DNA of 64,000 bases from an uncultured delta proteobacterium (GTDB taxonomy: Bacteria; Desulfobacterota; Desulfomonilia; UBA1062). Shown here piece after piece: positions 3,431-11,649 of this stretch. A program made the position numbers and the translations under genes. Where the stretch lies: NCBI GenBank assembly GCA_963785235.1, contig CAWAUM010000002.1, positions 32,001 through 96,000 of the forward strand, in the 5' to 3' direction. Position 1 is the first letter of the stretch. The number at the start of each line of letters is the position of its first letter. The notes beneath the pieces are model-generated. The model was not told the origin of the DNA. It saw only the letters and a program-made list of their open reading frames with translations, and made no database searches.

Positions 3431-3505
3431 GGGGGTGTAGCTCAGTGGGAGAGCATCGCGTTCGCAATGCGAGGGTCGAGAGTTCAAATCTCTCCACCTC
3501 CACCA
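3431..3505 (+). tRNA. tRNA-Ala (anticodon CGC)
   Basis: GGGGGTG/CACCTCC acceptor with G3:U70, TCGCG-TT-CGC-AA-TGCGA anticodon arm, GTTCAAATC T loop, encoded CCA. Confidence 0.96.
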
Positions 3506-3547
3506 TCTTTTCAATAAATCGGATGACCCCATTTTATCCCATTGAGA

Positions 3548-3582
3548 TTGACTTTTTCTCCGATAAGCAATACATGTATAGC
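3548..3582 (+). promoter_or_regulatory. TA promoter (TTGACT...TACATG/TATAGC) with palindromic operator GCAATACATGTATAGC (3567-3582)
   Basis: Near-perfect palindrome over the -10 region, directly upstream of an RHH antitoxin. Confidence 0.6.
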
Positions 3583-3598
3583 AAAAGGGAGAAAAGCC

Positions 3599-3824
3599 AT
3601 GCTCGCTATAAGACTTCCCGCAGAAATCGAAGACCGACTTGAGGCTTTGGCAAAAGCCACAGGCCGCACGAAGACCTTCTATGTTCGCGAAGCAATCCTT
3701 GAGCATATCGACGACCTTGAGGATGTTTACCTTGCCGAGAAACGGCTGGAAGATATCCGGTCAGGCCAGTAAAAAGATTATACCACTCGAAAAAATCATG
3801 AAACGCCATGGCATGGAGGGTTGA
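3599..3824 (+). CDS. RelB-like RHH antitoxin, frameshift near 3770
   Basis: [46 protein letters not shown], continuing [16 protein letters not shown] in another frame. Confidence 0.85.
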
Positions 3825-4081
3825 GCTAGACCCCGCAACAGCGCGGGAGATAGACCGCCTTGATAAACAAGTTGCCCGTCGTATCCTCAATTTTTTGTAT
3901 GAAAGAGTTGCTCGACTGGGCGATCCCCGTGCCATCGGCCAGGCTCTGCAGGGTCCTAAATTTGGTGAGCTCTGGAAAGTATCGAGTGGGTGACTGGCGC
4001 ATAATTTGTAAAATCGAAGATGAGCGAGTGACAGTCTTGGTCCTTCGTATCGGACACCGAAGCAAGGTATACAAGCCATAA
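3808..4081 (+). CDS. RelE/ParE family toxin, frameshift near 3975
   Basis: [27 protein letters not shown]... + [32 protein letters not shown]. Confidence 0.88.
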
Positions 4082-4139
4082 TCTTTATTCAAGTCACTGC
4101 AAACCATCACTGCCTTAACTCAAGGTTAGGGCTGATGGA

Positions 4140-4169
4140 TCGAGGGTTCAAATCCCTCCACCTCCACCA
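4140..4169 (+). repeat. Direct repeat of tRNA-Ala 3' end (att-like)
   Basis: TCGAGGGTTCAAATCCCTCCACCTCCACCA vs 3476-3505 TCGAGAGTTCAAATCTCTCCACCTCCACCA (28/30). Confidence 0.88.
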
Positions 4170-4273
4170 CTTTTTCATAAAATAACAAGAACATACAACT
4201 TGAACAACAATACCCATACCCCACACCCTTGTCTTTTGATTCTTCGATGCTAACCTATCAGTTGGGAGGGTAT

Positions 4274-4750
4274 ATGCGTATAGACAGAAATATCAAAGAG
4301 AAGGGACATGATCCGTATGGCCAAGTGAGAAAACATACCGAAGGCGCATACTGCCCCGAATGCAGGGCCATTTATCAGGGAGGAAGATGGATATGGCCTG
4401 ATAAGCAGCCTGCGGCCTTGGGTGTACCACTGCTTTGTTCAGCATGCAGAAGGATCAGGGATGATTTCCCGGCAGGAGAGGTACGTCTGTCAGGCATTTA
4501 TCTGATCAAGCACAAGGAGGAGATTGAAAACCTGGTCAATAAGATCGTCAAAGAAGCAAAGGAGAAATCGCCCGGCAAGAGAATGATTGACATGGAAAAA
4601 TCAACTGAAGGATTGTGCGTGAGATTGACTGATGATCATCTTGCCCGGCACATTGGAGATGCCCTTTATCGGGCCTATAAAGGAGATCTGCAGCTTAAGT
4701 ATTCTGATGAACAGAAATTCGTGAGGCTTTACTGGCATCGTGATGAATGA
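4274..4750 (+). CDS. BCAM0308-family protein
   Basis: HDPY, CPECRAIYQGGRW, CSACRRIRDDFPAG, HLARHIGDAL..AYKG; SD GGAGG. Confidence 0.75.
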   Translation: MRIDRNIKEKGHDPYGQVRKHTEGAYCPECRAIYQGGRWIWPDKQPAALGVPLLCSACRRIRDDFPAGEVRLSGIYLIKHKEEIENLVNKIVKEAKEKSPGKRMIDMEKSTEGLCVRLTDDHLARHIGDALYRAYKGDLQLKYSDEQKFVRLYWHRDE

Positions 4751-4806
4751 ATTGGTCAAGGATAAGAAACACCGATGATATGGGTTTGAGTAAAGATGAG
4801 ATCAAG

Positions 4807-4843
4807 TCCGGGAACTTTTAAGACTGTAGTGGATCGTTCCCGG
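4807..4843. terminator. Stem-loop between convergent transcripts
   Basis: TCCGGGAAC...GTTCCCGGA inverted repeat. Confidence 0.4.
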
Positions 4844-4870
4844 AGAGGAAGTCTTTGGACCCCTGTTTGA

Positions 4871-4966
4871 TTACCGGCTGTGCTCCGTCCTGGGAGCGTG
4901 TTTCACGAACCGTGCAGTCAGGGCCAGGAATGCTGTGAAGCCAACAATTACAAAGATGACTGTCAT
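4871..4966 (-). CDS. 31-aa single-TM peptide (not in ORF track)
   Basis: MTVIFVIVGFTAFLALTARFVKHAPRTEHSR*; ATG 2 nt after upstream stop; GAGG SD. Confidence 0.55.
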   Translation of the reverse strand: MTVIFVIVGFTAFLALTARFVKHAPRTEHSR

Positions 4967-4968
4967 GG

Positions 4969-5208
4969 CTATGCCCTCTTTACCTTTCTCTCGATCACGA
5001 CCTCTTCGATGAACCCCTTGAAGCCCAGTGCTATGCCGGCCACCAGTCCTACCATCGTGAAGTTGGGTGCCATGCCGAGAACCCTGTCCAGATACATGCC
5101 GCCGTAGAGTCCGAGGAAGGTCATCGTAACGAGCACCAGGCTGTATGCGCTTATCCTGCTGAGCCTGTTGGCCAGTGCCTTTTCGATCTTTTCTTTCTTT
5201 GTCTTCAT
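4969..5208 (-). CDS. AtpZ/AtpI-like (ATPase gene1) 2-TM small membrane protein
   Basis: GLYGGMYLDRVLGMAPNFTMVGLVAGIALG pattern; SD AAGGAGG. Confidence 0.75.
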   Translation of the reverse strand: MKTKKEKIEKALANRLSRISAYSLVLVTMTFLGLYGGMYLDRVLGMAPNFTMVGLVAGIALGFKGFIEEVVIERKVKRA

Positions 5209-5247
5209 GGCCTTCCTCCTTATCCTTTTTTCTATCTGAGTCCTGCC

Positions 5248-5424
5248 TTAGAACAGGCTCATGAGGATCTCACGTGCCGGGCCGGTGTTGATGGTTACCA
5301 GGGCGACAACCAGGACGAATACCGCGCTTGCTTCTACCGGGGTGAGTCCCAATACCTTGTAGGTGAACCTGATCCCGATGCCGGTCATGAACAGTGCGCC
5401 GATTACGATCCATAATGTCATCAT
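5248..5424 (-). CDS. 58-aa 2-TM small protein (not in ORF track)
   Basis: MMTLWIVIGALFMTGIGIRFTYKVLGLTPVEASAVFVLVVALVTINTGPAREILMSLF*; SD GGAGG; host-like codons. Confidence 0.75.
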   Translation of the reverse strand: MMTLWIVIGALFMTGIGIRFTYKVLGLTPVEASAVFVLVVALVTINTGPAREILMSLF

Positions 5425-5472
5425 TGTCTTGCCCTCCCTGGGGTTTGTTTTTTTCTTTCTAACATATATAAG

Positions 5473-5487
5473 GCAAGGGGCGTGCCA
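5473..5487 (-). promoter_or_regulatory. Sigma54 promoter
   Basis: TGGCAC-GCCCC-TTGC, exact -24/-12 consensus. Confidence 0.85.
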
Positions 5488-5502
5488 GGTTCTGGCAATT
5501 TA

Positions 5503-5515
5503 TAACTTATTGATA
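5503..5515 (-). promoter_or_regulatory. IHF site
   Basis: TATCAA-TAAG-TTA matches WATCAANNNNTTR, between promoter and enhancers. Confidence 0.7.
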
Positions 5516-5548
5516 TCATAAAAAATTATGTAATGGCCTTTCCTGGAA

Positions 5549-5644
5549 TTGTCATTTTGGCAAAAAAGCCTCCTGCAAGGACATGGGTGGGTACAAAATG
5601 ACAAAATACCCTCAGGGGCGCTACTAAGATTGCCAGAATGGCAA
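5549..5644. promoter_or_regulatory. Three enhancer-like palindromes (TTGYCA-N3-TGRCAA)
   Basis: TTGTCATTTTGGCAA 5549, GGTACAAAATGACAA 5590, TTGCCAGAATGGCAA 5630; spacing 41 and 40 bp. Confidence 0.65.
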
Positions 5645-5698
5645 AGACCGGGATTACACGCATGCCTGTGATCTCCCGTTATGAGATGACTACCGGAT

Positions 5699-6523
5699 TC
5701 AAGGCCCTTGGTCTTCATGAACCCCGTTGTTATAGACATAGCTTGAATTGGTCATAAAGGTCCTGATGCCGCCCATGATGCCGTCAACAATGGTTTCCAG
5801 GTGTGCACTATCATGCAGGAGCATGCAGTCGGCAGGGTTGGTTATAAAGCCCATCTCGATGAGGATGGCCGGCATCTGCGCGCCCATGAGCACGTAGAAG
5901 GGCGCCTGTTTAACGCCCAGGTCTTTGCCGGTATACCCTGTCTTTCTCAGGGAAGAGATAATGGCGTTCTGGGTGAAGGTGGCGAACCTCGATGATTCAT
6001 TGATTTTGGCATTGAGCATGAGGTCCTTGATGATGAGCTGAAGGCCTTTCATGGACGAGGAGGACATGGCGTTCTCCCGCTGTGCCACCTTATTGGACGA
6101 GGCGTCGGTGGTCAGGTTCAGGAAGTATGTCTCAACCCCATCCCTGTACCGTGCCTCAGTTGCATTCACATGGATGGAGACAAAGAGGTCCGCCTTGTGT
6201 TTATTGGCAAAGGCTGTCCGGTCTTCAAGGGGGATATAGGTATCATTCTCCCGGGTAAGGAAGACCTCTACACCTTCATCGCACAGGCGTTTCGCAAGGA
6301 TCCTGCCCACCTCGAGGGTGATATCCTTCTCCTTCTCGCCATGCGGGCCTACACCACCCGGGGCCTTTCCCCCGTGGCCGGGATCGATGACGATCTTCAA
6401 TGCCTTGGACTTCTCCAGCGGGTCGGAAGATGCTGCAAGAAGCGTCTTATTGCTGCTGAAAAAGGAGAGAAAGACGGCAATGACGATGAGGACGAACAAG
6501 GTTCTCGCATTGTCCGTATTCAT
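5699..6523 (-). CDS. N-acetylmuramoyl-L-alanine amidase (Amidase_3)
   Basis: IVIDPGHGG, EKDITL, LTRE, FVSIHVNA, ILIEMGFITN; N-terminal signal/TM. Confidence 0.92.
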   Translation of the reverse strand: MNTDNARTLFVLIVIAVFLSFFSSNKTLLAASSDPLEKSKALKIVIDPGHGGKAPGGVGPHGEKEKDITLEVGRILAKRLCDEGVEVFLTRENDTYIPLEDRTAFANKHKADLFVSIHVNATEARYRDGVETYFLNLTTDASSNKVAQRENAMSSSSMKGLQLIIKDLMLNAKINESSRFATFTQNAIISSLRKTGYTGKDLGVKQAPFYVLMGAQMPAILIEMGFITNPADCMLLHDSAHLETIVDGIMGGIRTFMTNSSYVYNNGVHEDQGP

Positions 6524-6584
6524 GATAGCCACTGTATATAGGAAAATCAGTTGAGATACAATTATTTCCGGATTGCAGTTTTAC

Positions 6585-7955
6585 CTAAAACTGCTCTTTC
6601 TCATTGATGATATTATACTTCCTGATCTTGTAATGCATGACCCGCCTGGATATGCCGAGGATCTGGGCAGCGTCTTTCTGGACCCAGTTGGACTTCTTCA
6701 GCGCCTGGATAAGCATAGTCTTCTCATGGGCCTCAATAGGGTTGAGCCCCTCTTCCGAGAGTGGAACAGCCGTTGTGCGGTCAAACATACCCGAGGGCAG
6801 GATCTCGTCAGGGGTTATGATAGGCCCCTTGCTGAGCACCACTGCGGACTGGATGATGTTCTTCAGCTCCCTGACATTACCCGGCCAGGAATGGGAAAGG
6901 AGCATGTCCATGGCCTCCCTGCTGAAGCCGGTAACGGTCTTGCCTGTCTTGTTGGTGAATTCCGTAAGGAAGACCTGGGCCAGCCCGATGATATCTTCCT
7001 TCCTGTCTCTTAAGGGCGGCAGGTTGATGGTGAAGACCTTAAGCCGGTAAAAGAGATCTTCCCGGAACTCTCCCTTTTCCACCTTGGCCTTGAGATCCAC
7101 GTTGGTGGCGGCTATCACCCGGATGTTCACATGTTTCTGGTTGACCTCACCCAGTCGCCTGAACTCTCCTGATTCCAGAACCCTCAACAGACGTGTCTGC
7201 ATCTCGGGTGAAATGTTGCCGATCTCATCAAGGAAAAGCGTCCCTCCGTCGGCCTCTTCGATGATACCGCGCTTATCTTTTACCGCCCCGGTAAATGCGC
7301 CGCGCCCATAACCGAACAGCTCGGCCTCGATGAGGGTGTGGGGGGTGGCCCCGCAGTCCATGATGACAAGCTTGCCCTCACGCCTTTTGCTCTCATAGTG
7401 GAGCATCCGGGTTACAAGCTCCTTGCCGGTGCCCGACTCGCCAAGGACAAGCACCGTGGCATCCGATGAGCTCACCTGGCGGACCAGGGCCAGGATCTTC
7501 TTCATGGCAGGGCTTTCGGCATAGATATGATGCTCTATGCTGTCTCCAATCTCCTGCTCCAGGTAACGGACCCGCTGCTTGAGCCCGCGCTTTTCTATTG
7601 CCTTTTCGATCTTGGCCACCAGCTCGATGGCCTCGAAAGGCTTCACAAGGTAGTCATGCGACCCTTCCTTGATGGCCTGCACCGCACCCTCAATGGAACC
7701 ATAGGCCGTAAAGATGATGACCTCGATATCCGGGTCGATCTTCTTGGCCTCCTTGAGGACCTCCATACCATCCATTTCAGGCATCTTGAGGTCTGTAATC
7801 AGGACGCTGAATGTGTCCTTCTTGAGCTCATCCAGGGCCTTCCTGGCCTTGGTATATCCCACGGCATAGAACCCCATCGCTTCAAGCCTCGCAACCAGGA
7901 CCTCTACAATGTCCGGCTCGTCATCAATGATGAGGATCTTGTGCTTCTGGCTCAT
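6585..7955 (-). CDS. Sigma54-dependent response regulator (NtrC/AtoC/GlrR type)
   Basis: REC domain, GESGTGKE, ELFG, GAFTGA, FLDEIG, WPGNVREL, Fis HTH. Confidence 0.95.
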   Translation of the reverse strand: MSQKHKILIIDDEPDIVEVLVARLEAMGFYAVGYTKARKALDELKKDTFSVLITDLKMPEMDGMEVLKEAKKIDPDIEVIIFTAYGSIEGAVQAIKEGSHDYLVKPFEAIELVAKIEKAIEKRGLKQRVRYLEQEIGDSIEHHIYAESPAMKKILALVRQVSSSDATVLVLGESGTGKELVTRMLHYESKRREGKLVIMDCGATPHTLIEAELFGYGRGAFTGAVKDKRGIIEEADGGTLFLDEIGNISPEMQTRLLRVLESGEFRRLGEVNQKHVNIRVIAATNVDLKAKVEKGEFREDLFYRLKVFTINLPPLRDRKEDIIGLAQVFLTEFTNKTGKTVTGFSREAMDMLLSHSWPGNVRELKNIIQSAVVLSKGPIITPDEILPSGMFDRTTAVPLSEEGLNPIEAHEKTMLIQALKKSNWVQKDAAQILGISRRVMHYKIRKYNIINEKEQF

Positions 7956-8518
7956 TGCTTTCCTCGGCGCTTGACAGACTCGAGATGGATCTGTTCGAGT
8001 TTTTTCAGCTTGTAGCTCAACACCTCTATCTCTTTTTTAATGTCCTCGAGGTCCTTTTTCAAGCCCTCGTTTTCTTTCCTTGCCTGCTCAAGGCTCCGTT
8101 TCAGTTCTTCAATCTCCTTTGCATATTCCTTTGCCCTGGCAGCAGACTTCTGAAGGGTCTCCATACGCTCAATGAGGGTCAGCAGGTAGCCTGCCTCTAC
8201 CTTCAAGTAATCAGGCACGAATGTCTTACCTCTGATCTCTTCCAGGTCGGTCTTCATGACACTAAAGGCATATTCACCCTTGATGATTGAATCCATGATC
8301 AGGGCAATCTTGTGGCGGGCAACCAGTGAGGGAGGTAACACAGGATTCATTGACTTGAGATCCTCGCCGGAGGCCTTGCCCTGGGAAAGATTCTTCTCCG
8401 CAGCATCAATCTTGGTGTACAGGATCTCCGTCGCGCATCCCTGGAAGAGAAGCATTGTCATGAGCAACAGGAAGGCTGAAAGAAAAAATACTCCCCTTTC
8501 CCTCACTGCTTTGTGCAT
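7952..8518 (-). CDS. Lipoprotein with coiled-coil C-terminus (QseG-like position); start uncertain
   Basis: Lipobox FQGC; C-terminal heptads ending KLKKLEQIHLESVKRR; between kinase and regulator. Confidence 0.65.
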   Translation of the reverse strand: MHKAVRERGVFFLSAFLLLMTMLLFQGCATEILYTKIDAAEKNLSQGKASGEDLKSMNPVLPPSLVARHKIALIMDSIIKGEYAFSVMKTDLEEIRGKTFVPDYLKVEAGYLLTLIERMETLQKSAARAKEYAKEIEELKRSLEQARKENEGLKKDLEDIKKEIEVLSYKLKKLEQIHLESVKRRGKQ

Positions 8519-9908
8519 AAACCGTTCCTCCATGTGCATCAACGATCCCCCTTGAGATCGCAAGACCGAGCCCTATGCCGCCATGACCCCTTGTGTATCT
8601 CGACTGGTAGAACTTCTCAAAGATACGGGGCATATCCTCTGCGGGTATTCCCTTGCCGTGGTCCTCGATCTCAGTGATGATATATCCGTCAGAGTTCCTT
8701 ATCCTGATCTCTATTACAGAGCCTTCGGGTGAGTATTTGATTGCATTGTGCGTGAGGTTTGTCAAGACCTGCAGGATCTTGTTCCAGTCCACCATGACCG
8801 TGCAGTCATCCTGAGTATACTCCACCTTGATCTCCACACCATTGATATCGGCAATGGGGTTGATCTCGGATATGAATGAAGTTACCACCTTGTTCATGTC
8901 ATGGGGCTCCATATGCAGCCGGACCATACCGCTTTCTATCCGCGACATATCCAGTAGTTCTGAGACAGTATGTAAAAGCCTCTTGATGCCTTGTCCCATG
9001 ATCTCTACAAGCCGTTTCTGCCTGTCGGACAGATCACCGGCCAGGCCCTCCAGCAGCAGGCTTGCCGCCTCCTTCATGGAGGTCAGGGGTGTCTTCAGCT
9101 CGTGCGACACGACTGAAATAAACTCGGATTTCATCGTATCAAGCTCCTTGAGGCGCAACGCCATATTATTGAATGATTCAGCAAGCTGGCCCAGCTCATG
9201 CTTGGAGTCCAGAGAGATACGGTGATCGAAATCACCATCGGCGATATGTTTGATGCCGCCCATGATGCGATTGAGGTCCCTGGTGACGCTCCGGTAGATG
9301 AGGATAGGTACGATGAGGCCGATGCTCAGGGAAACGGCAAGCACCCACCATGTCCAGGACATGATCTGGTCGCCCAGGTCCTTCAGGTAGGCAATGTGCA
9401 TCCGCAGCCGGTCAACCGCCTCATTGTTAACATAACGGGCAATCCCCACAATGCCGTCTATCTCTGAGCTGTTGCGGATAAAGAGCTTCTCAAGATCTTT
9501 CGGGTTATTGGGAAGCTCTGTGAGCTGGGTGTGGAATCTGCTTACATAGGCCATCCACAAACCCTTGCCGTTTTCCATCATATTCCTCTCGGGCTCATCG
9601 TAGTACATGCCCTTCGTGTTAAGATTGTCCCATGCCCGGGAGATGTCCTTCTCCTGCTGTTCCAATATGGAGCGATAGGAATCGTTCTGGAGGAGCATAT
9701 ACTGCTTGCCGGTTTCCTCAATGGAGATAAGATTGGTAATGAGCTTGTCCGTGATCTCTTTTTTCTTATAATCAATAAGGTAGATCTTTGTGCTGAGCGT
9801 GCTGACCCGCGATGAGACAATAAAGAGCACTAATGTGATCCCGAGAAGGACCGCCACAAAGACCACATAGGTCATAATGAGCTTTTGCAGGAGGCCGGGT
9901 TTTGTCAT
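8406..9908 (-). CDS. Sensor histidine kinase (2 TM, HAMP, HisKA, HATPase)
   Basis: ELGQLAESFNNM, SHELKTPL, NAIKY, DHGKGI, GIGLGLAI. Confidence 0.93.
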   Translation of the reverse strand: MTKPGLLQKLIMTYVVFVAVLLGITLVLFIVSSRVSTLSTKIYLIDYKKKEITDKLITNLISIEETGKQYMLLQNDSYRSILEQQEKDISRAWDNLNTKGMYYDEPERNMMENGKGLWMAYVSRFHTQLTELPNNPKDLEKLFIRNSSEIDGIVGIARYVNNEAVDRLRMHIAYLKDLGDQIMSWTWWVLAVSLSIGLIVPILIYRSVTRDLNRIMGGIKHIADGDFDHRISLDSKHELGQLAESFNNMALRLKELDTMKSEFISVVSHELKTPLTSMKEAASLLLEGLAGDLSDRQKRLVEIMGQGIKRLLHTVSELLDMSRIESGMVRLHMEPHDMNKVVTSFISEINPIADINGVEIKVEYTQDDCTVMVDWNKILQVLTNLTHNAIKYSPEGSVIEIRIRNSDGYIITEIEDHGKGIPAEDMPRIFEKFYQSRYTRGHGGIGLGLAISRGIVDAHGGTVYAQSSEGKGSIFSFSLPVAHDNASLPGMRDGDPVHQD

Positions 9909-9910
9909 GC

Positions 9911-9937
9911 TAAAGATTATAGACATTTCTCCGATAA
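9911..9937 (+). promoter_or_regulatory. Sigma28 (FliA) promoter
   Basis: TAAA-N15-TCCGATAA upstream of a flagellar rod-like gene. Confidence 0.65.
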
Positions 9938-9959
9938 GTGAGCAAGGGAGAGAATAATT

Positions 9960-10286
9960 ATGTCCATACTCTTATCATCATTGAGGGCACATGAGATCCT
10001 TCTGGCCAATGCCTCTTCCAATGTGGCGAACATGAACACGCCTGACTACAAGGCTATCAGGACCACCATTACACCATCGCCGGACGGCGCTGTGGACGTT
10101 GCCACGAGCAGGTCCGATGAGCCCGCCCCCATGAACTCCGATGGACGTATGGAGTCAAACGTCGACATGGCAAAGGAATTTACGGACATGATGCGCGCAA
10201 AAACCGGCTTCGAGTCCGTGCTGAATGCCATCCGCACCCGTGAGGATATGCTCGACGACCTCATGGACATACTGACGAAGAAGTAA
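9960..10286 (+). CDS. Short flagellar basal-body rod/hook-like protein
   Basis: SNVANMNTPDYK N-terminal and SNVDMAKEFTDMM C-terminal motifs with almost no central domain. Confidence 0.75.
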   Translation: MSILLSSLRAHEILLANASSNVANMNTPDYKAIRTTITPSPDGAVDVATSRSDEPAPMNSDGRMESNVDMAKEFTDMMRAKTGFESVLNAIRTREDMLDDLMDILTKK

Positions 10287-10338
10287 CCATCTGCATATCA
10301 TCAGCATATATCCTTAAGAAAACGGTATTACCCCGCCC

Positions 10339-11649
10339 ATGGAAGAGATGTACAAGTCCGTCAAACTCGGTTATACTGCCTATCCGATGATTAATGATCT
10401 GCTCTATAGGTGCCCTCAATGTGGTGCATTTGATTGGCTGGAGCGGAATCATTGCGTATCCTGTCATGCGGACTTCAGGCTCACAACACGTTCCCTCGCC
10501 TCGCTGGATGGGGAAGTCCGGCCGATTTCTCACTGGTACAAGAAGATCCTGACCTTTGAGCTGCCCCAAGCCTTTTCAGGCACCATCATGAAAAGCCGCC
10601 AGGTCAGGCTTTCGCGTGAGTCTCAGGAGGGTATGTATGAAGGGTATGCCGGCATTACCGCATGCCATTTCACACGGGCACCTCTAGACACGGGCACCCT
10701 GTTCCTCAAAGAGGATGCCTTGAGCTTTTCGGGTGTCACCACCAGCATTGATGTGCCTTTTGGTGCACTCATGGGTGTTACCATTGAATCGAATACCATC
10801 ATCGTCATCAGCCGTGAACATGGGCCCCTGTTTTTTGATTTTCTCGATGAATCGGGCAAGAAGTGGGAAGACTTCATCCAGAAGGCGCTCAAAAAATATC
10901 ATGGCCCCGGCGAGATAGTGGAATTCTATCCAAGGGTCCGTTTCCGGGGTTCCTTAAGGGTAACCCCTTCAAAGGTGCCGGGCCACCAAAAGCTGCGTGT
11001 GCCTGAAAGAAGGTGGTATCCAAGGGATAAAAGCATGCTCTCCATGGTGCTGAAGCCCATTGCCCGGCCTATCCTCAAGGCCCTCCTGTCGGTTACCATC
11101 ACAGGACTTGAGAACATACCCGCCAAAGGGGCAGCCATCGTCGTACCCAACCATACCTCATTTCTCGATTCCGTTATCCTGGGTTTCTTTACCAGACGCG
11201 ACATATGGTACATGGCTAAAAATTCGGAGTACCGGCATTCTTTCATGAAGTGGTTCCTTCGGCATGCAGGGTCCTTCCCGGTGAGGAGGTACACCATCGA
11301 TGTTCTGGCCATCCGTAATGCAATCCGGGTGGTGGGGCATGGTCATATCCTTGGTATATTCCCCGAGGGCGAGCGGACGTGGGACGGGGAAATGCTGCCG
11401 CTCCGCACCGGTACGATCCGGCTTATCCTCGCCCTGGATACGCCCGTTATCCCTGTGGGCATATCAGGTGCATACAGCCTCATGCCCCGCTGGACATCGT
11501 CCATCAAGCTTTCTCCCATAAAGATCGCCATCGGCAAACCCATAGCGTTTCCACACATACCCATCCCGAGACAGACCAGGCACGACATCGAATCCGCATC
11601 CAGGGAGTTACGTGCACAAATACAAAGACTGTCCGGGGGGATTCCGTGA
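10339..11649 (+). CDS. PlsC-family acyltransferase with N-terminal Zn-ribbon extension
   Basis: NHTSFLD, FPEGER in C-terminal half; CPQC..CVSC at N-terminus. Confidence 0.8.
   Translation: MEEMYKSVKLGYTAYPMINDLLYRCPQCGAFDWLERNHCVSCHADFRLTTRSLASLDGEVRPISHWYKKILTFELPQAFSGTIMKSRQVRLSRESQEGMYEGYAGITACHFTRAPLDTGTLFLKEDALSFSGVTTSIDVPFGALMGVTIESNTIIVISREHGPLFFDFLDESGKKWEDFIQKALKKYHGPGEIVEFYPRVRFRGSLRVTPSKVPGHQKLRVPERRWYPRDKSMLSMVLKPIARPILKALLSVTITGLENIPAKGAAIVVPNHTSFLDSVILGFFTRRDIWYMAKNSEYRHSFMKWFLRHAGSFPVRRYTIDVLAIRNAIRVVGHGHILGIFPEGERTWDGEMLPLRTGTIRLILALDTPVIPVGISGAYSLMPRWTSSIKLSPIKIAIGKPIAFPHIPIPRQTRHDIESASRELRAQIQRLSGGIP

Follow-up and report, generated by a model that had tools for sequence, protein, structure and literature searches.

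The stretch of DNA analysed here, which we call the window, comprises 64,000 nt (positions 32001-96000 of contig C2 of the source genome, G000). On its minus strand, to which all cassette coordinates refer, a sigma-54-type promoter is followed by three very small genes, ORF1, ORF2 and ORF3 (ORF, open reading frame; Table 1). Judged from the DNA sequence, the interval 5655-4871 constitutes a complete transcription unit, one member of a multicopy regulon, and its three genes, apparently translationally coupled, encode tiny membrane proteins with a predicted total of five helices. Hydropathy and charge predict that ORF1 is a hairpin with both termini outside and a basic loop inside, that ORF2 has both termini inside, and that ORF3 runs from an outer N-terminus to an inner C-terminus. 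Each of the three ORFs is preceded by a Shine-Dalgarno sequence, and ORF2 and ORF3, which overlap through an ATGA in many related loci, are separated by 2 nt in the window copy. The initial annotation had likewise described three hydrophobic ORFs of 58, 79 and 31 aa with Shine-Dalgarno sequences, a description that direct reading and the selection analysis both confirm.

All three ORFs are under purifying selection. The median pairwise dN/dS (the ratio of nonsynonymous to synonymous substitution rates), a check that the initial annotation had proposed, was 0.18 for ORF1, 0.22 for ORF2 and 0.52 for ORF3, and rose to 1.4 and 2.5 when the ORF1 region was read in the two shifted frames. These values bear on the idea that the ORFs are chance reading frames in a sigma-54-driven non-coding RNA, comparable to the multicopy Qrr or GlmY-type small RNAs (sRNAs). 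Multicopy sigma-54-dependent sRNA targets with shared upstream sites are known, and two of the ORFs are very short. However, the in-frame dN/dS values lie far below 1 and those of the shifted frames exceed 1, the start codons, Shine-Dalgarno sites and ATGA coupling are conserved, ORF2 matches a Pfam family, and an Rfam scan of positions 4700-5800 returned no match; an RNA-only reading is, for practical purposes, refuted.

Homologues of the cassette are also found among assembled contigs from RNA libraries. In four runs of two studies, labelled as sediment, wetland and sludge, contigs were 88-100 % alike over 4958-5452, and no contig from these runs covered 5486-5720. One contig extends 151 nt upstream of its ORF1 homologue with unlike sequence. 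Because such contigs cannot show a transcription start, and because the promoter region diverges among relatives, the upstream gap is no evidence for a start site. What the contigs show is the presence of homologues in RNA libraries, and no more than that.

Table 1. Features of the cassette and its surroundings. Positions are those of the window unless a contig is given; UAS, upstream activating site; IHF, integration host factor; HTH, helix-turn-helix
Feature	Position	Strand	Basis or remark
Repeated cassette, enhancer to just past ORF3	4830-5655	-	blastn against own genome
UAS1, TTGCCATTCTGGCAA, perfect TTGCCA-N3-TGGCAA palindrome	5630-5644	-	direct reading
UAS2, TTGTCATTTTGTACC, imperfect	5590-5604	-	direct reading
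UAS3, TTGCCAAAATGACAA	5549-5563	-	direct reading
IHF consensus, TATCAATAAGTTA, fits WATCAANNNNTTR; between UAS3 and the -24 element	5503-5515	-	sequence match; predicted site
Sigma-54 promoter, -24 TGGCAC / -12 TTGC, TGGCACGCCCCTTGC	5473-5487	-	direct reading
Predicted transcription start, about 11-13 nt past the -12 GC	5460-5462	-	inferred from usual sigma-54 geometry
ORF1, 58 aa, two-helix hairpin, no Pfam family	5248-5424	-	GGGAGGG 9 nt before ATG
ORF2, 79 aa, PF09527 (AtpZ/AtpQ, ATPase_gene1)	4969-5208	-	AAGGAGG before ATG
ORF3, 31 aa, single helix	4871-4966	-	
N-acetylmuramoyl-L-alanine amidase (Amidase_3), between regulator and cassette	5699-6532	-	
NtrC-type sigma-54 response regulator (receiver, AAA+, Fis-type HTH), candidate activator	6585-7955	-	
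Putative lipoprotein, coiled-coil C-terminal half, leader ends LLFQGC	7952-8563	-	
Membrane sensor histidine kinase (HAMP, HisKA, HATPase_c)	8406-9926	-	
Type B loci L047-L049, L052, L053	G000 C5:536779-537476, C11:127811-128522, C2:266556-267266, C1:155252-155945, C12:218581-219270		

Promoter, IHF site and activator sites

The promoter had been annotated as an exact sigma-54 promoter, and it is one: TGGCAC-N5-TTGC is present without mismatch at 5487-5473, with canonical spacing between the -24 and -12 elements. The longer pattern TGGCACG-N4-TTGC has its sole exact match in the window here, and with up to one mismatch it occurs four times against 1.17 expected. The promoter is kept in all seven copies of the cassette in the source genome; of the 67 public loci that could be assessed, 61 carry a strict match, which lies 49-67 nt upstream of the ORF1 ATG. 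The public loci were obtained by scanning an ORF2 alignment against species-representative genomes, which yielded 80 loci, all from uncultured metagenome-assembled genomes (MAGs) of the lineage; for sigma-54 and UAS counts, the 67 with 260 nt of upstream sequence were assessable. These 80 loci are not an independent sample, as they come largely from the same genomes as our panel of 41 related genomes (including 24 of the same family of uncultured Desulfomonilia and 16 of a sister family).

Upstream of the -24 element, the sequence at 5515-5503 fits the IHF consensus exactly, as had also been claimed. The pattern by itself occurs at chance frequency (three in the window against 1.94 expected), so the weight of this predicted site comes from its position and its conservation in paralogues rather than from rarity. 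In the five close copies, the block from IHF site to promoter (5515-5473) shows 93.5 % identity, and even the copy that is only 67 % identical overall retains the IHF core TCA-N5-GTTATAA.

Further upstream lie three candidate activator sites, UAS3, UAS2 and UAS1, centred 71, 112 and 152 bp, respectively, from the -24 GG. The initial annotation had seen here three related palindromes 41 and 40 bp apart. The centre-to-centre spacing of 40 and 41 bp, about four helical turns, holds, but the middle site is only half palindromic in the window copy. In diverged copies and other genera, UAS2 is a full TGTCA-N3-TGNCA at about -172 from the ORF1 ATG, and a UAS1-type site recurs at about -210 to -220 in related genomes. 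Every one of the 67 assessable public loci has at least one UAS, 61 have at least two and 28 have three, at about -215, -175 and -135 from the ORF1 ATG (UAS3-type sites at -130 to -140).

We take TGNCA-N3-TGNCA to be the consensus of these predicted NtrC-family activator sites. Within the window, this pattern (TGNCANNNTGNCA) has two full matches, both of them cassette sites. The whole genome contains 61 distinct TGNCA-N3-TGNCA sites, yet clusters of two or more occur just seven times, each time at a cassette of the type found in the window (the sigma-54 trio ORF1-ORF2-ORF3, hereafter type A, as distinct from a second, related cassette type, type B). Similarly, among 48 strict sigma-54 matches genome-wide, only the seven type A promoters have such a site within 200 bp upstream. 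Across the seven copies, mean pairwise identity is 84 % in UAS1, 88 % in UAS2 and 75 % in UAS3, against 47-51 % in the spacers. The genome thus offers seven natural replicates of one enhancer, in which drifting spacers footprint the activator sites. The genome has one rpoN gene, and Sigma54_activat matched it 33 times, in about 30 activator genes, some of the matches being fragments. An activator AAA+ domain with two stop codons lies at C5:543469-543843, approximately 5 kb from a type A/type B pair on C5.

A multicopy cassette of narrow distribution

A blastn search of window positions 4000-10500 against the source genome confined the repeat to 4830-5655; the amidase and two-component genes lie outside it. 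Four of the other copies are 91-94 % identical over 791-839 bp, one is 82 % and one 67 % identical, making seven in all. The earlier reading of a single operon therefore stands as regards the cassette itself, but not as regards its uniqueness. Comparison of the five close copies gave 99 % identity in ORF1 and ORF2, 91 % in ORF3 and 74 % in the enhancer region, with the IHF-promoter block in between as given above. A core that is identical at synonymous sites, set inside diverging flanks, points to gene conversion among the copies.

The window copy differs from its relatives at the 3′ end. Other copies end in a GC hairpin followed by a T run, a terminator that the window copy has lost; the weak hairpin past its ORF3 is no better than those of shuffled sequences (z = -1.3). 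The C-terminal tail of its ORF3 is 9 nt (three codons) shorter, giving 31 aa as against 34 aa in the four near-identical copies. A BCAM0308-family protein (NCBIfam NF040826, E 8e-47) is encoded at 4229-4750 on the plus strand, convergent with the cassette, and as the terminator hairpin is absent, transcription of the window copy may read through into the antisense strand of this gene.

Such a dispersed repeat could be a selfish or toxin-like element that spreads itself and encodes membrane-damaging peptides in the style of a type I toxin, holin or bacteriocin. The near-identical units bounded exactly by promoter and terminator, the small hydrophobic products and the amidase gene adjoining the window copy would fit this idea. 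Against it, the copies are flanked by no target-site duplications or terminal inverted repeats and are accompanied by no transposase, searches with the genes found nothing in PADLOC and nothing noteworthy in PHROGs, the amidase gene lies outside the repeat, and an enhancer-dependent promoter is conserved together with genes that are under strong purifying selection and whose synteny is fixed across at least eight genera. We consider a selfish origin very unlikely.

The distribution of the cassette is narrow. ORF1 was found in 22 of the 41 related genomes, with one to seven matches per genome: 21 of the 24 genomes of the same family had it and none of the 16 of the sister family. In a set of 5.8 billion proteins, ORF1 forms 223 clusters at 90 % identity; the named clusters among those listed are all called ‘hypothetical’, and their records are labelled Desulfomonilia or Deltaproteobacteria. 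On this sequence evidence, the ORF1 family is a narrow one. The cassette proteins are often missed or mis-started by gene callers and are annotated as ‘hypothetical’, and yet they are conserved, amplified and homogenised family-wide in uncultured anaerobes.

Gene order within the cassette is stable. Of 32 related loci, 28 have ORF2 immediately after ORF1, three have ORF1 and ORF3 without ORF2, and one has ORF1 alone. A script rule recognised ORF3 in 26 of the 32 loci, one apparently frameshifted, and three more were present in the ORF lists. At the public loci, which include one in a MAG titled Phox-21, ORF1 lies directly upstream of ORF2 wherever there is room for it (69 of 69), and an ORF3-like gene lies downstream in 69 of 78. 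The initial annotation had proposed to test whether the trio is co-conserved with its promoter, its palindromes and the gene cluster at 5699-9908; the trio does travel with promoter and sites, but its adjacency to the cluster is not conserved. In related MAGs, contig ends often fall within the cassette (locus L055, which is the start of G011:C60, and loci L139 and L141-L143). Cassette repeats break assemblies, so the copy numbers obtained from draft genomes are probably underestimates.

The genomic surroundings of the seven copies are diverse, and no neighbour is common to all of them. Other copies are found near KatG, a Fur-family regulator and a peroxiredoxin; near rubrerythrin and a P-type ATPase; near an Na+/H+ exchanger; and near an amino-acid ABC transporter. 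One copy, in the region C1:575500-587500 (L046), follows atpAGDC at a distance of 1.3 kb; the intervening toxin-antitoxin pair, of TumE type, comprises a TumE-type toxin gene and a gene of HVO_A0114 type, and beyond the copy comes a gene for a hybrid PAS histidine kinase.

Type B comprises five gene pairs, each encoding a 91-aa protein with a signal-like leader and a PF09527 protein of 87 to 100 aa. Three of these pairs face a type A trio tail to tail. By hhalign, ORF1 and the first type B protein are related over both helices, with glutamate on glutamate (probability 74 %, E 2.7e-5), which would make both cassette types ‘hairpin plus AtpZ-like’ modules. The type B promoters are also of the -24/-12 class but have different upstream repeats, so that a different activator is expected for them.

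AtpZ-type protein, hairpin protein and the c-subunit question

The 79-aa protein had been said to resemble AtpZ/ATPase gene1, and ORF2 is indeed, by sequence, a true member of PF09527, which it matches with an E-value of 2.1e-10 and 40.9 bits against a gathering cut-off of 26.6. Ten ORF2 residues are invariant (F31, G33, G37, D41, P48, F50, T51, G58, G62 and R74), the aspartate falling in the predicted outer loop, and the signature YLD...P-FT...G...GF is common to ORF2 and an atp-linked PF09527 protein of the same genome. A 15-residue hydropathy scan of ORF2 shows just short hydrophobic patches at about 26-31 and 56-60; two helices are supported by the match to a two-helix family and by the alignment, and the basic N- and C-termini fit a topology with both ends inside.

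ORF2 does not belong to an F-type or N-type atp operon, its neighbours being ORF1, ORF3, the amidase gene and the BCAM0308-family gene. The statement that no atp genes are in the window holds for the c subunit, as a PF00137 search of the window gave no match; not every other atp family was scanned there. The source genome has 15 PF09527 matches, of which three are atp-linked, seven belong to type A and five to type B. One of the atp-linked genes is followed by an AtpI-like gene, an ORF of a-subunit size and atpE, and another lies inside an N-ATPase-type operon. The number of PF09527 genes per genome ranges from two to 15 in the same family, as against one to two in the sister family.

ORF1 and ORF3 gave nothing meaningful against Pfam, NCBIfam, PADLOC and PHROGs, and in the ESM Atlas ORF1 retrieved just unnamed clusters of its own kind. 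ORF3 is, on profile evidence, a paralogue of the first helix of ORF1: hhalign placed residues 1-25 of one on residues 1-25 of the other in the same register (probability 86.6 %, E 4.5e-6). Its invariant residues are G9, A15, R19 and F20, and elsewhere it is 34-51 aa long. In ORF1, 18 of 58 columns are invariant, including G9, G15, G17, R19, F20, E31, N46, P49 and R51; Glu31 is present in all 31 homologues.

Several observations connect ORF1 with the c subunit of ATP synthase (PF00137). A profile of ORF1 searched against 177,635 PDB sequences had two matches at E of 10 or below, both of them c subunits (5fl7_K, E 0.18; 4bem_J, E 2.5), and Glu31 aligned on the ion-binding glutamate of 5fl7_K and of the first repeat of 4bem_J. 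When the same profile was run against 50,074 six-frame ORFs of the source genome, ranks 1-7 were the ORF1 copies themselves, ranks 8-12 the type B proteins and ranks 13-15 three of the four atpE products (E 0.064-0.23), with noise beyond. Reciprocally, a c-subunit profile placed ORF1 copies at ranks 6-10 in the genome. ORF1 resembles a c subunit in being a hairpin with both ends predicted outside, a basic loop inside and glycines in helix 1; its helix 2 is in one register with c-subunit helix 2, and N46 and P49 align on the ANP end of the c subunit. This topology and helix-2 alignment allow ORF1 to be read as a stripped-down c-type proteolipid, and the chances that it descends from a c subunit appear to us evenly balanced.

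Other observations make the link a weak one, each alignment being statistically marginal. PF00137 matches none of the 31 ORF1 homologues at E of 10 or below; hhalign of ORF1 against the four c subunits of the source genome gave a probability of just 3.9 %; and the c-subunit matches scored 12.9-14.7 bits, as against 12.9 bits for the best reversed-sequence null. An exhaustive profile search of 1.84 billion representatives returned 15 sequences, all close, and no bridging relatives. ORF1 is 58 aa long, whereas the c subunits of the genome measure 98-125 aa, and Glu31 is near the start of its helix rather than mid-membrane.

The geometry of ORF1 is also curtailed. The span from loop to glutamate comprises residues 19-31, about eight fewer than the approximately 20 of c subunits; the helix-1 glycines are just G9, G15 and G17; and two full-length helices joined by a stalk-contacting polar loop were not found. 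Each ORF1 helix would be about two turns shorter than its c-subunit counterpart on the cytoplasmic side, and with these turns the stalk-contacting loop would be absent too. The first protein of type B gives no stronger link, as a single-sequence search against PDB and Pfam found no c-subunit match and hhalign against c subunits gave a probability of 2.9 %. A signal-like leader ending in FA-A is, though, common to the type B proteins and the genome's three F-type c subunits.

A PF00137 search of the source genome found four true c-subunit genes and no cassette gene; the three of F-type carry signal-like leaders. Two atpE genes are orphans outside atp operons, at C2:184615-184989 (L062 7113-7490) and C1:729292-729657 (L044). 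The orphan on C2 has a sigma-54-like TGGCATAGCTATTGC upstream and none of the type A sites, and is followed by a gene for a 429-aa membrane protein of the dCache_1 kind in which no output domain is recognised.

Weighing these findings, we consider the best overall explanation to be a sigma-54-dependent multicopy cassette for an inducible assembly of proteolipids related to ion handling or ATP synthase, an account that, to judge from sequence, has about an equal chance of being right or wrong. Under such a model, a signal would cause one activator to form hexamers simultaneously at every copy, on its three sites, IHF would loop the activator onto the sigma-54 polymerase, and the seven copies together would deliver a burst of small membrane proteins. 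On induction, ORF1 might then assemble in the membrane with its AtpZ-type partner to bind or conduct ions, whether independently or by acting on the Fo rotor. Should descent from the c subunit and AtpZ prove true, the cassettes would be the first case of Fo parts turned into inducible derivatives amplified in copy number, and would provide a defined small partner with which AtpZ/AtpQ proteins could be tested. Against the model as a whole, six of the seven copies are remote from atp genes, and the RNA support consists of assembled contigs, in which the missing upstream cover may reflect divergence of the promoter region.

A bolder version holds that the lineage maintains as many as a dozen homogenised copies of miniature proteolipids derived from the c subunit, each with an AtpZ-type partner, and that these respond to a signal by remodelling, capping or bypassing the rotor of ATP synthase. 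We think this distinctly improbable. Were it true, the outcome would be an altered ion-to-ATP ratio or a regulated ion leak, an undescribed form of bioenergetic retuning in energy-starved anaerobes.

Alternatively, the cassette could encode a free-standing small channel or uptake device for a cation such as Mg2+, Ca2+ or H+, built around the AtpZ-type protein, the likeness of ORF1 to c subunits being convergence between glycine-rich hairpins with a membrane carboxylate. AtpZ of Bacillus pseudofirmus is tied to Mg2+ acquisition and a relation to calcium uniporters is proposed (PMC4453477, PMC3543383), and atpQ is described outside N-ATPase operons as well (PMC2881411). The invariant aspartate in the outer loop of ORF2 would suit such a device, as would c-subunit scores at the edge of the null and the location of most copies away from atp genes, some of them beside a P-type ATPase or Na+/H+ exchanger. 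On the other side, ORF1 and c subunits reach reciprocal top ranks with glutamate on glutamate in one register, and the neighbours vary from copy to copy, so that context indicates no consistent ion. A stand-alone cation device is unlikely in our estimation, and we retain the inducible, ATP synthase-related assembly as the preferred account.

The neighbouring operon and comparison with known systems

Beyond the amidase gene, the cassette is adjoined by genes for a kinase, a lipoprotein and an NtrC-type regulator, and the initial annotation had regarded the cassette as the likely output of this regulator. The operon is well conserved in its own right. Regulator orthologues 61-98 % identical are present in 22 of the 24 other same-family genomes, with none above 45 % in the sister family; kinase and regulator occur together in all eight related loci, accompanied in seven by the lipoprotein at 50 % identity or more. 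The kinase-lipoprotein-regulator order was present in all nine genomes examined, three of which have a cassette adjoining it: G000 (type A, co-directional, past the amidase), G003 (type A, convergent, with type B beyond) and G004 (type B). The amidase gene follows the regulator gene in G011 and G002, and was not within the stretches fetched for G003, G004, G008, G007 and G024; no cassette was beside the operon in the stretches fetched for G002, G007, G008 and G024. The G011 contig ends about 240 bp past the amidase gene, about where the repeat would begin, and that of G005 ends 211 bp past the regulator gene, so that neither amidase nor cassette is assessable there. A small conserved gene, PilZ-like by eye, lies between operon and type B in G004 (L058 5760-6210, minus strand) and between type B and type A in G003 (L054 3030-3350, plus strand).

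Several observations count against this regulator as the activator. It stands beside a cassette in just three of nine genomes, and then beside either type despite their different upstream sites; it lies within 1.2 kb of one of the 80 public cassette loci; and G021 (96 % complete) has the regulator with no ORF1 found, while G020 (97 %) has ORF1 with no regulator orthologue found. The other six copies in the source genome have no adjoining sigma-54 activator gene. Single TGNCA-N3-TGNCA sites near other activator genes are uninformative, and the recognition helix of the regulator, although invariant among orthologues, is a necessary and not a discriminating feature. The predicted link thus survives as an adjacency in the window and is weak, because that adjacency is not conserved. 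A multicopy, family-restricted cassette would be a regulon member rather than the private target of one neighbour. We regard the neighbouring operon as a tentative candidate for the activator of the cassette, and on balance a doubtful one.

The same operon underlies a further alternative, in which the cassette proteins would be effectors of envelope or membrane stress, small stabilisers induced through the adjacent kinase, lipoprotein and regulator, by analogy with QseE/QseG/QseF driving glmY and rpoE. The conserved order of these three genes, followed in the window by a cell-wall amidase, is compatible with this, as are the cassettes of either type beside the operon in three of nine genomes and the copies that adjoin KatG, a Fur-family regulator, a peroxiredoxin or rubrerythrin; QseF and QseG supply a precedent (PMC6075780). 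However, the regulator scores 352.6 bits with the GlrR model, whose cut-off is 763, and is thus no GlrR/QseF equivalog; the AtoC and NtrC models score higher yet remain below their own cut-offs. The lipoprotein, compared with PDB sequences, gave coiled-coil noise only and no similarity to solved chains. Moreover, adjacency is rare (one of 80 cassette loci), and the two cassette types beside the operon carry different upstream sites. A role in envelope stress is therefore unlikely.

The far side of the window copy holds a separate group of features: a tRNA-Ala gene (3431-3505), an RHH-type antitoxin-like ORF (3542-3772), a RelE/ParE-like toxin ORF (about 3808-4081; both by eye) and, at 4137-4183, a 47-bp, 85 % repeat of the tRNA-Ala 3′ end, in which Rfam recognises a partial tmRNA- or tRNA-like piece. 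Taken together, positions 3431-4183 have the look of a small island that inserted itself at the tRNA gene.

The initial annotation recognised no described system like this one, and within the literature outside subscription journals we too found no described sigma-54 cassette of this kind. The regulatory architecture is classical; what is new is the gene content, a variant assembled from Fo-accessory parts. Vibrio Qrr sRNAs are several dispersed, near-identical sigma-54 targets of LuxO, which recognises a TTGCA-N3-TGCAA site, and their copy number sets dosage. Whereas the Qrr targets are RNAs, the cassettes are three-gene protein operons in another phylum.

In Enterobacteriaceae, the glmY gene has three GlrR sites, of the form TGTC-N10-GACA, and an IHF site. 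Sigma-54 promoters are switched on by QseF from sites further upstream, and QseE has a lipoprotein, QseG, as a partner (PMC6075780). The QseE/QseG/QseF system (GlrK/YfhG/GlrR) resembles the window in grouping a kinase, a lipoprotein and a sigma-54 regulator with a small sigma-54 target adjoining, and glmY resembles the cassette in combining several activator sites with IHF. It differs in that the cassette is a protein operon in seven copies with TGNCA-N3-TGNCA sites and a putative link to the regulator; the regulator of the window fails the GlrR model, and its lipoprotein is unrelated by sequence. The norVW promoter likewise has three enhancer sites, for NorR, upstream of a sigma-54 promoter, a number that suits the assembly of a single hexamer (PMC2831303). 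The cassette shares the three activator sites, but the activator is of another class, the sites are different and norVW is a single-copy target.

To our knowledge, the function of AtpZ/AtpQ proteins is still unsettled after two decades. The genes atpZ and atpI are part of atpZIBE operons in Geobacter relatives (PMC3543383), PF09527 corresponds to AtpQ or ‘gene 1’ (PMC2881411), and AtpI is described as assisting c-ring assembly. Like the AtpZ/AtpQ proteins of atpZIBE and N-ATPase operons, ORF2 is a PF09527 protein, probably of two helices, with basic ends and the family signature. Unlike them, it lies outside any atp operon, between a 58-aa hairpin protein upstream and a 31-aa helix downstream, is driven by a sigma-54 promoter, and belongs to a type that is present as 12 extra cassette copies beside the three atp-linked genes.

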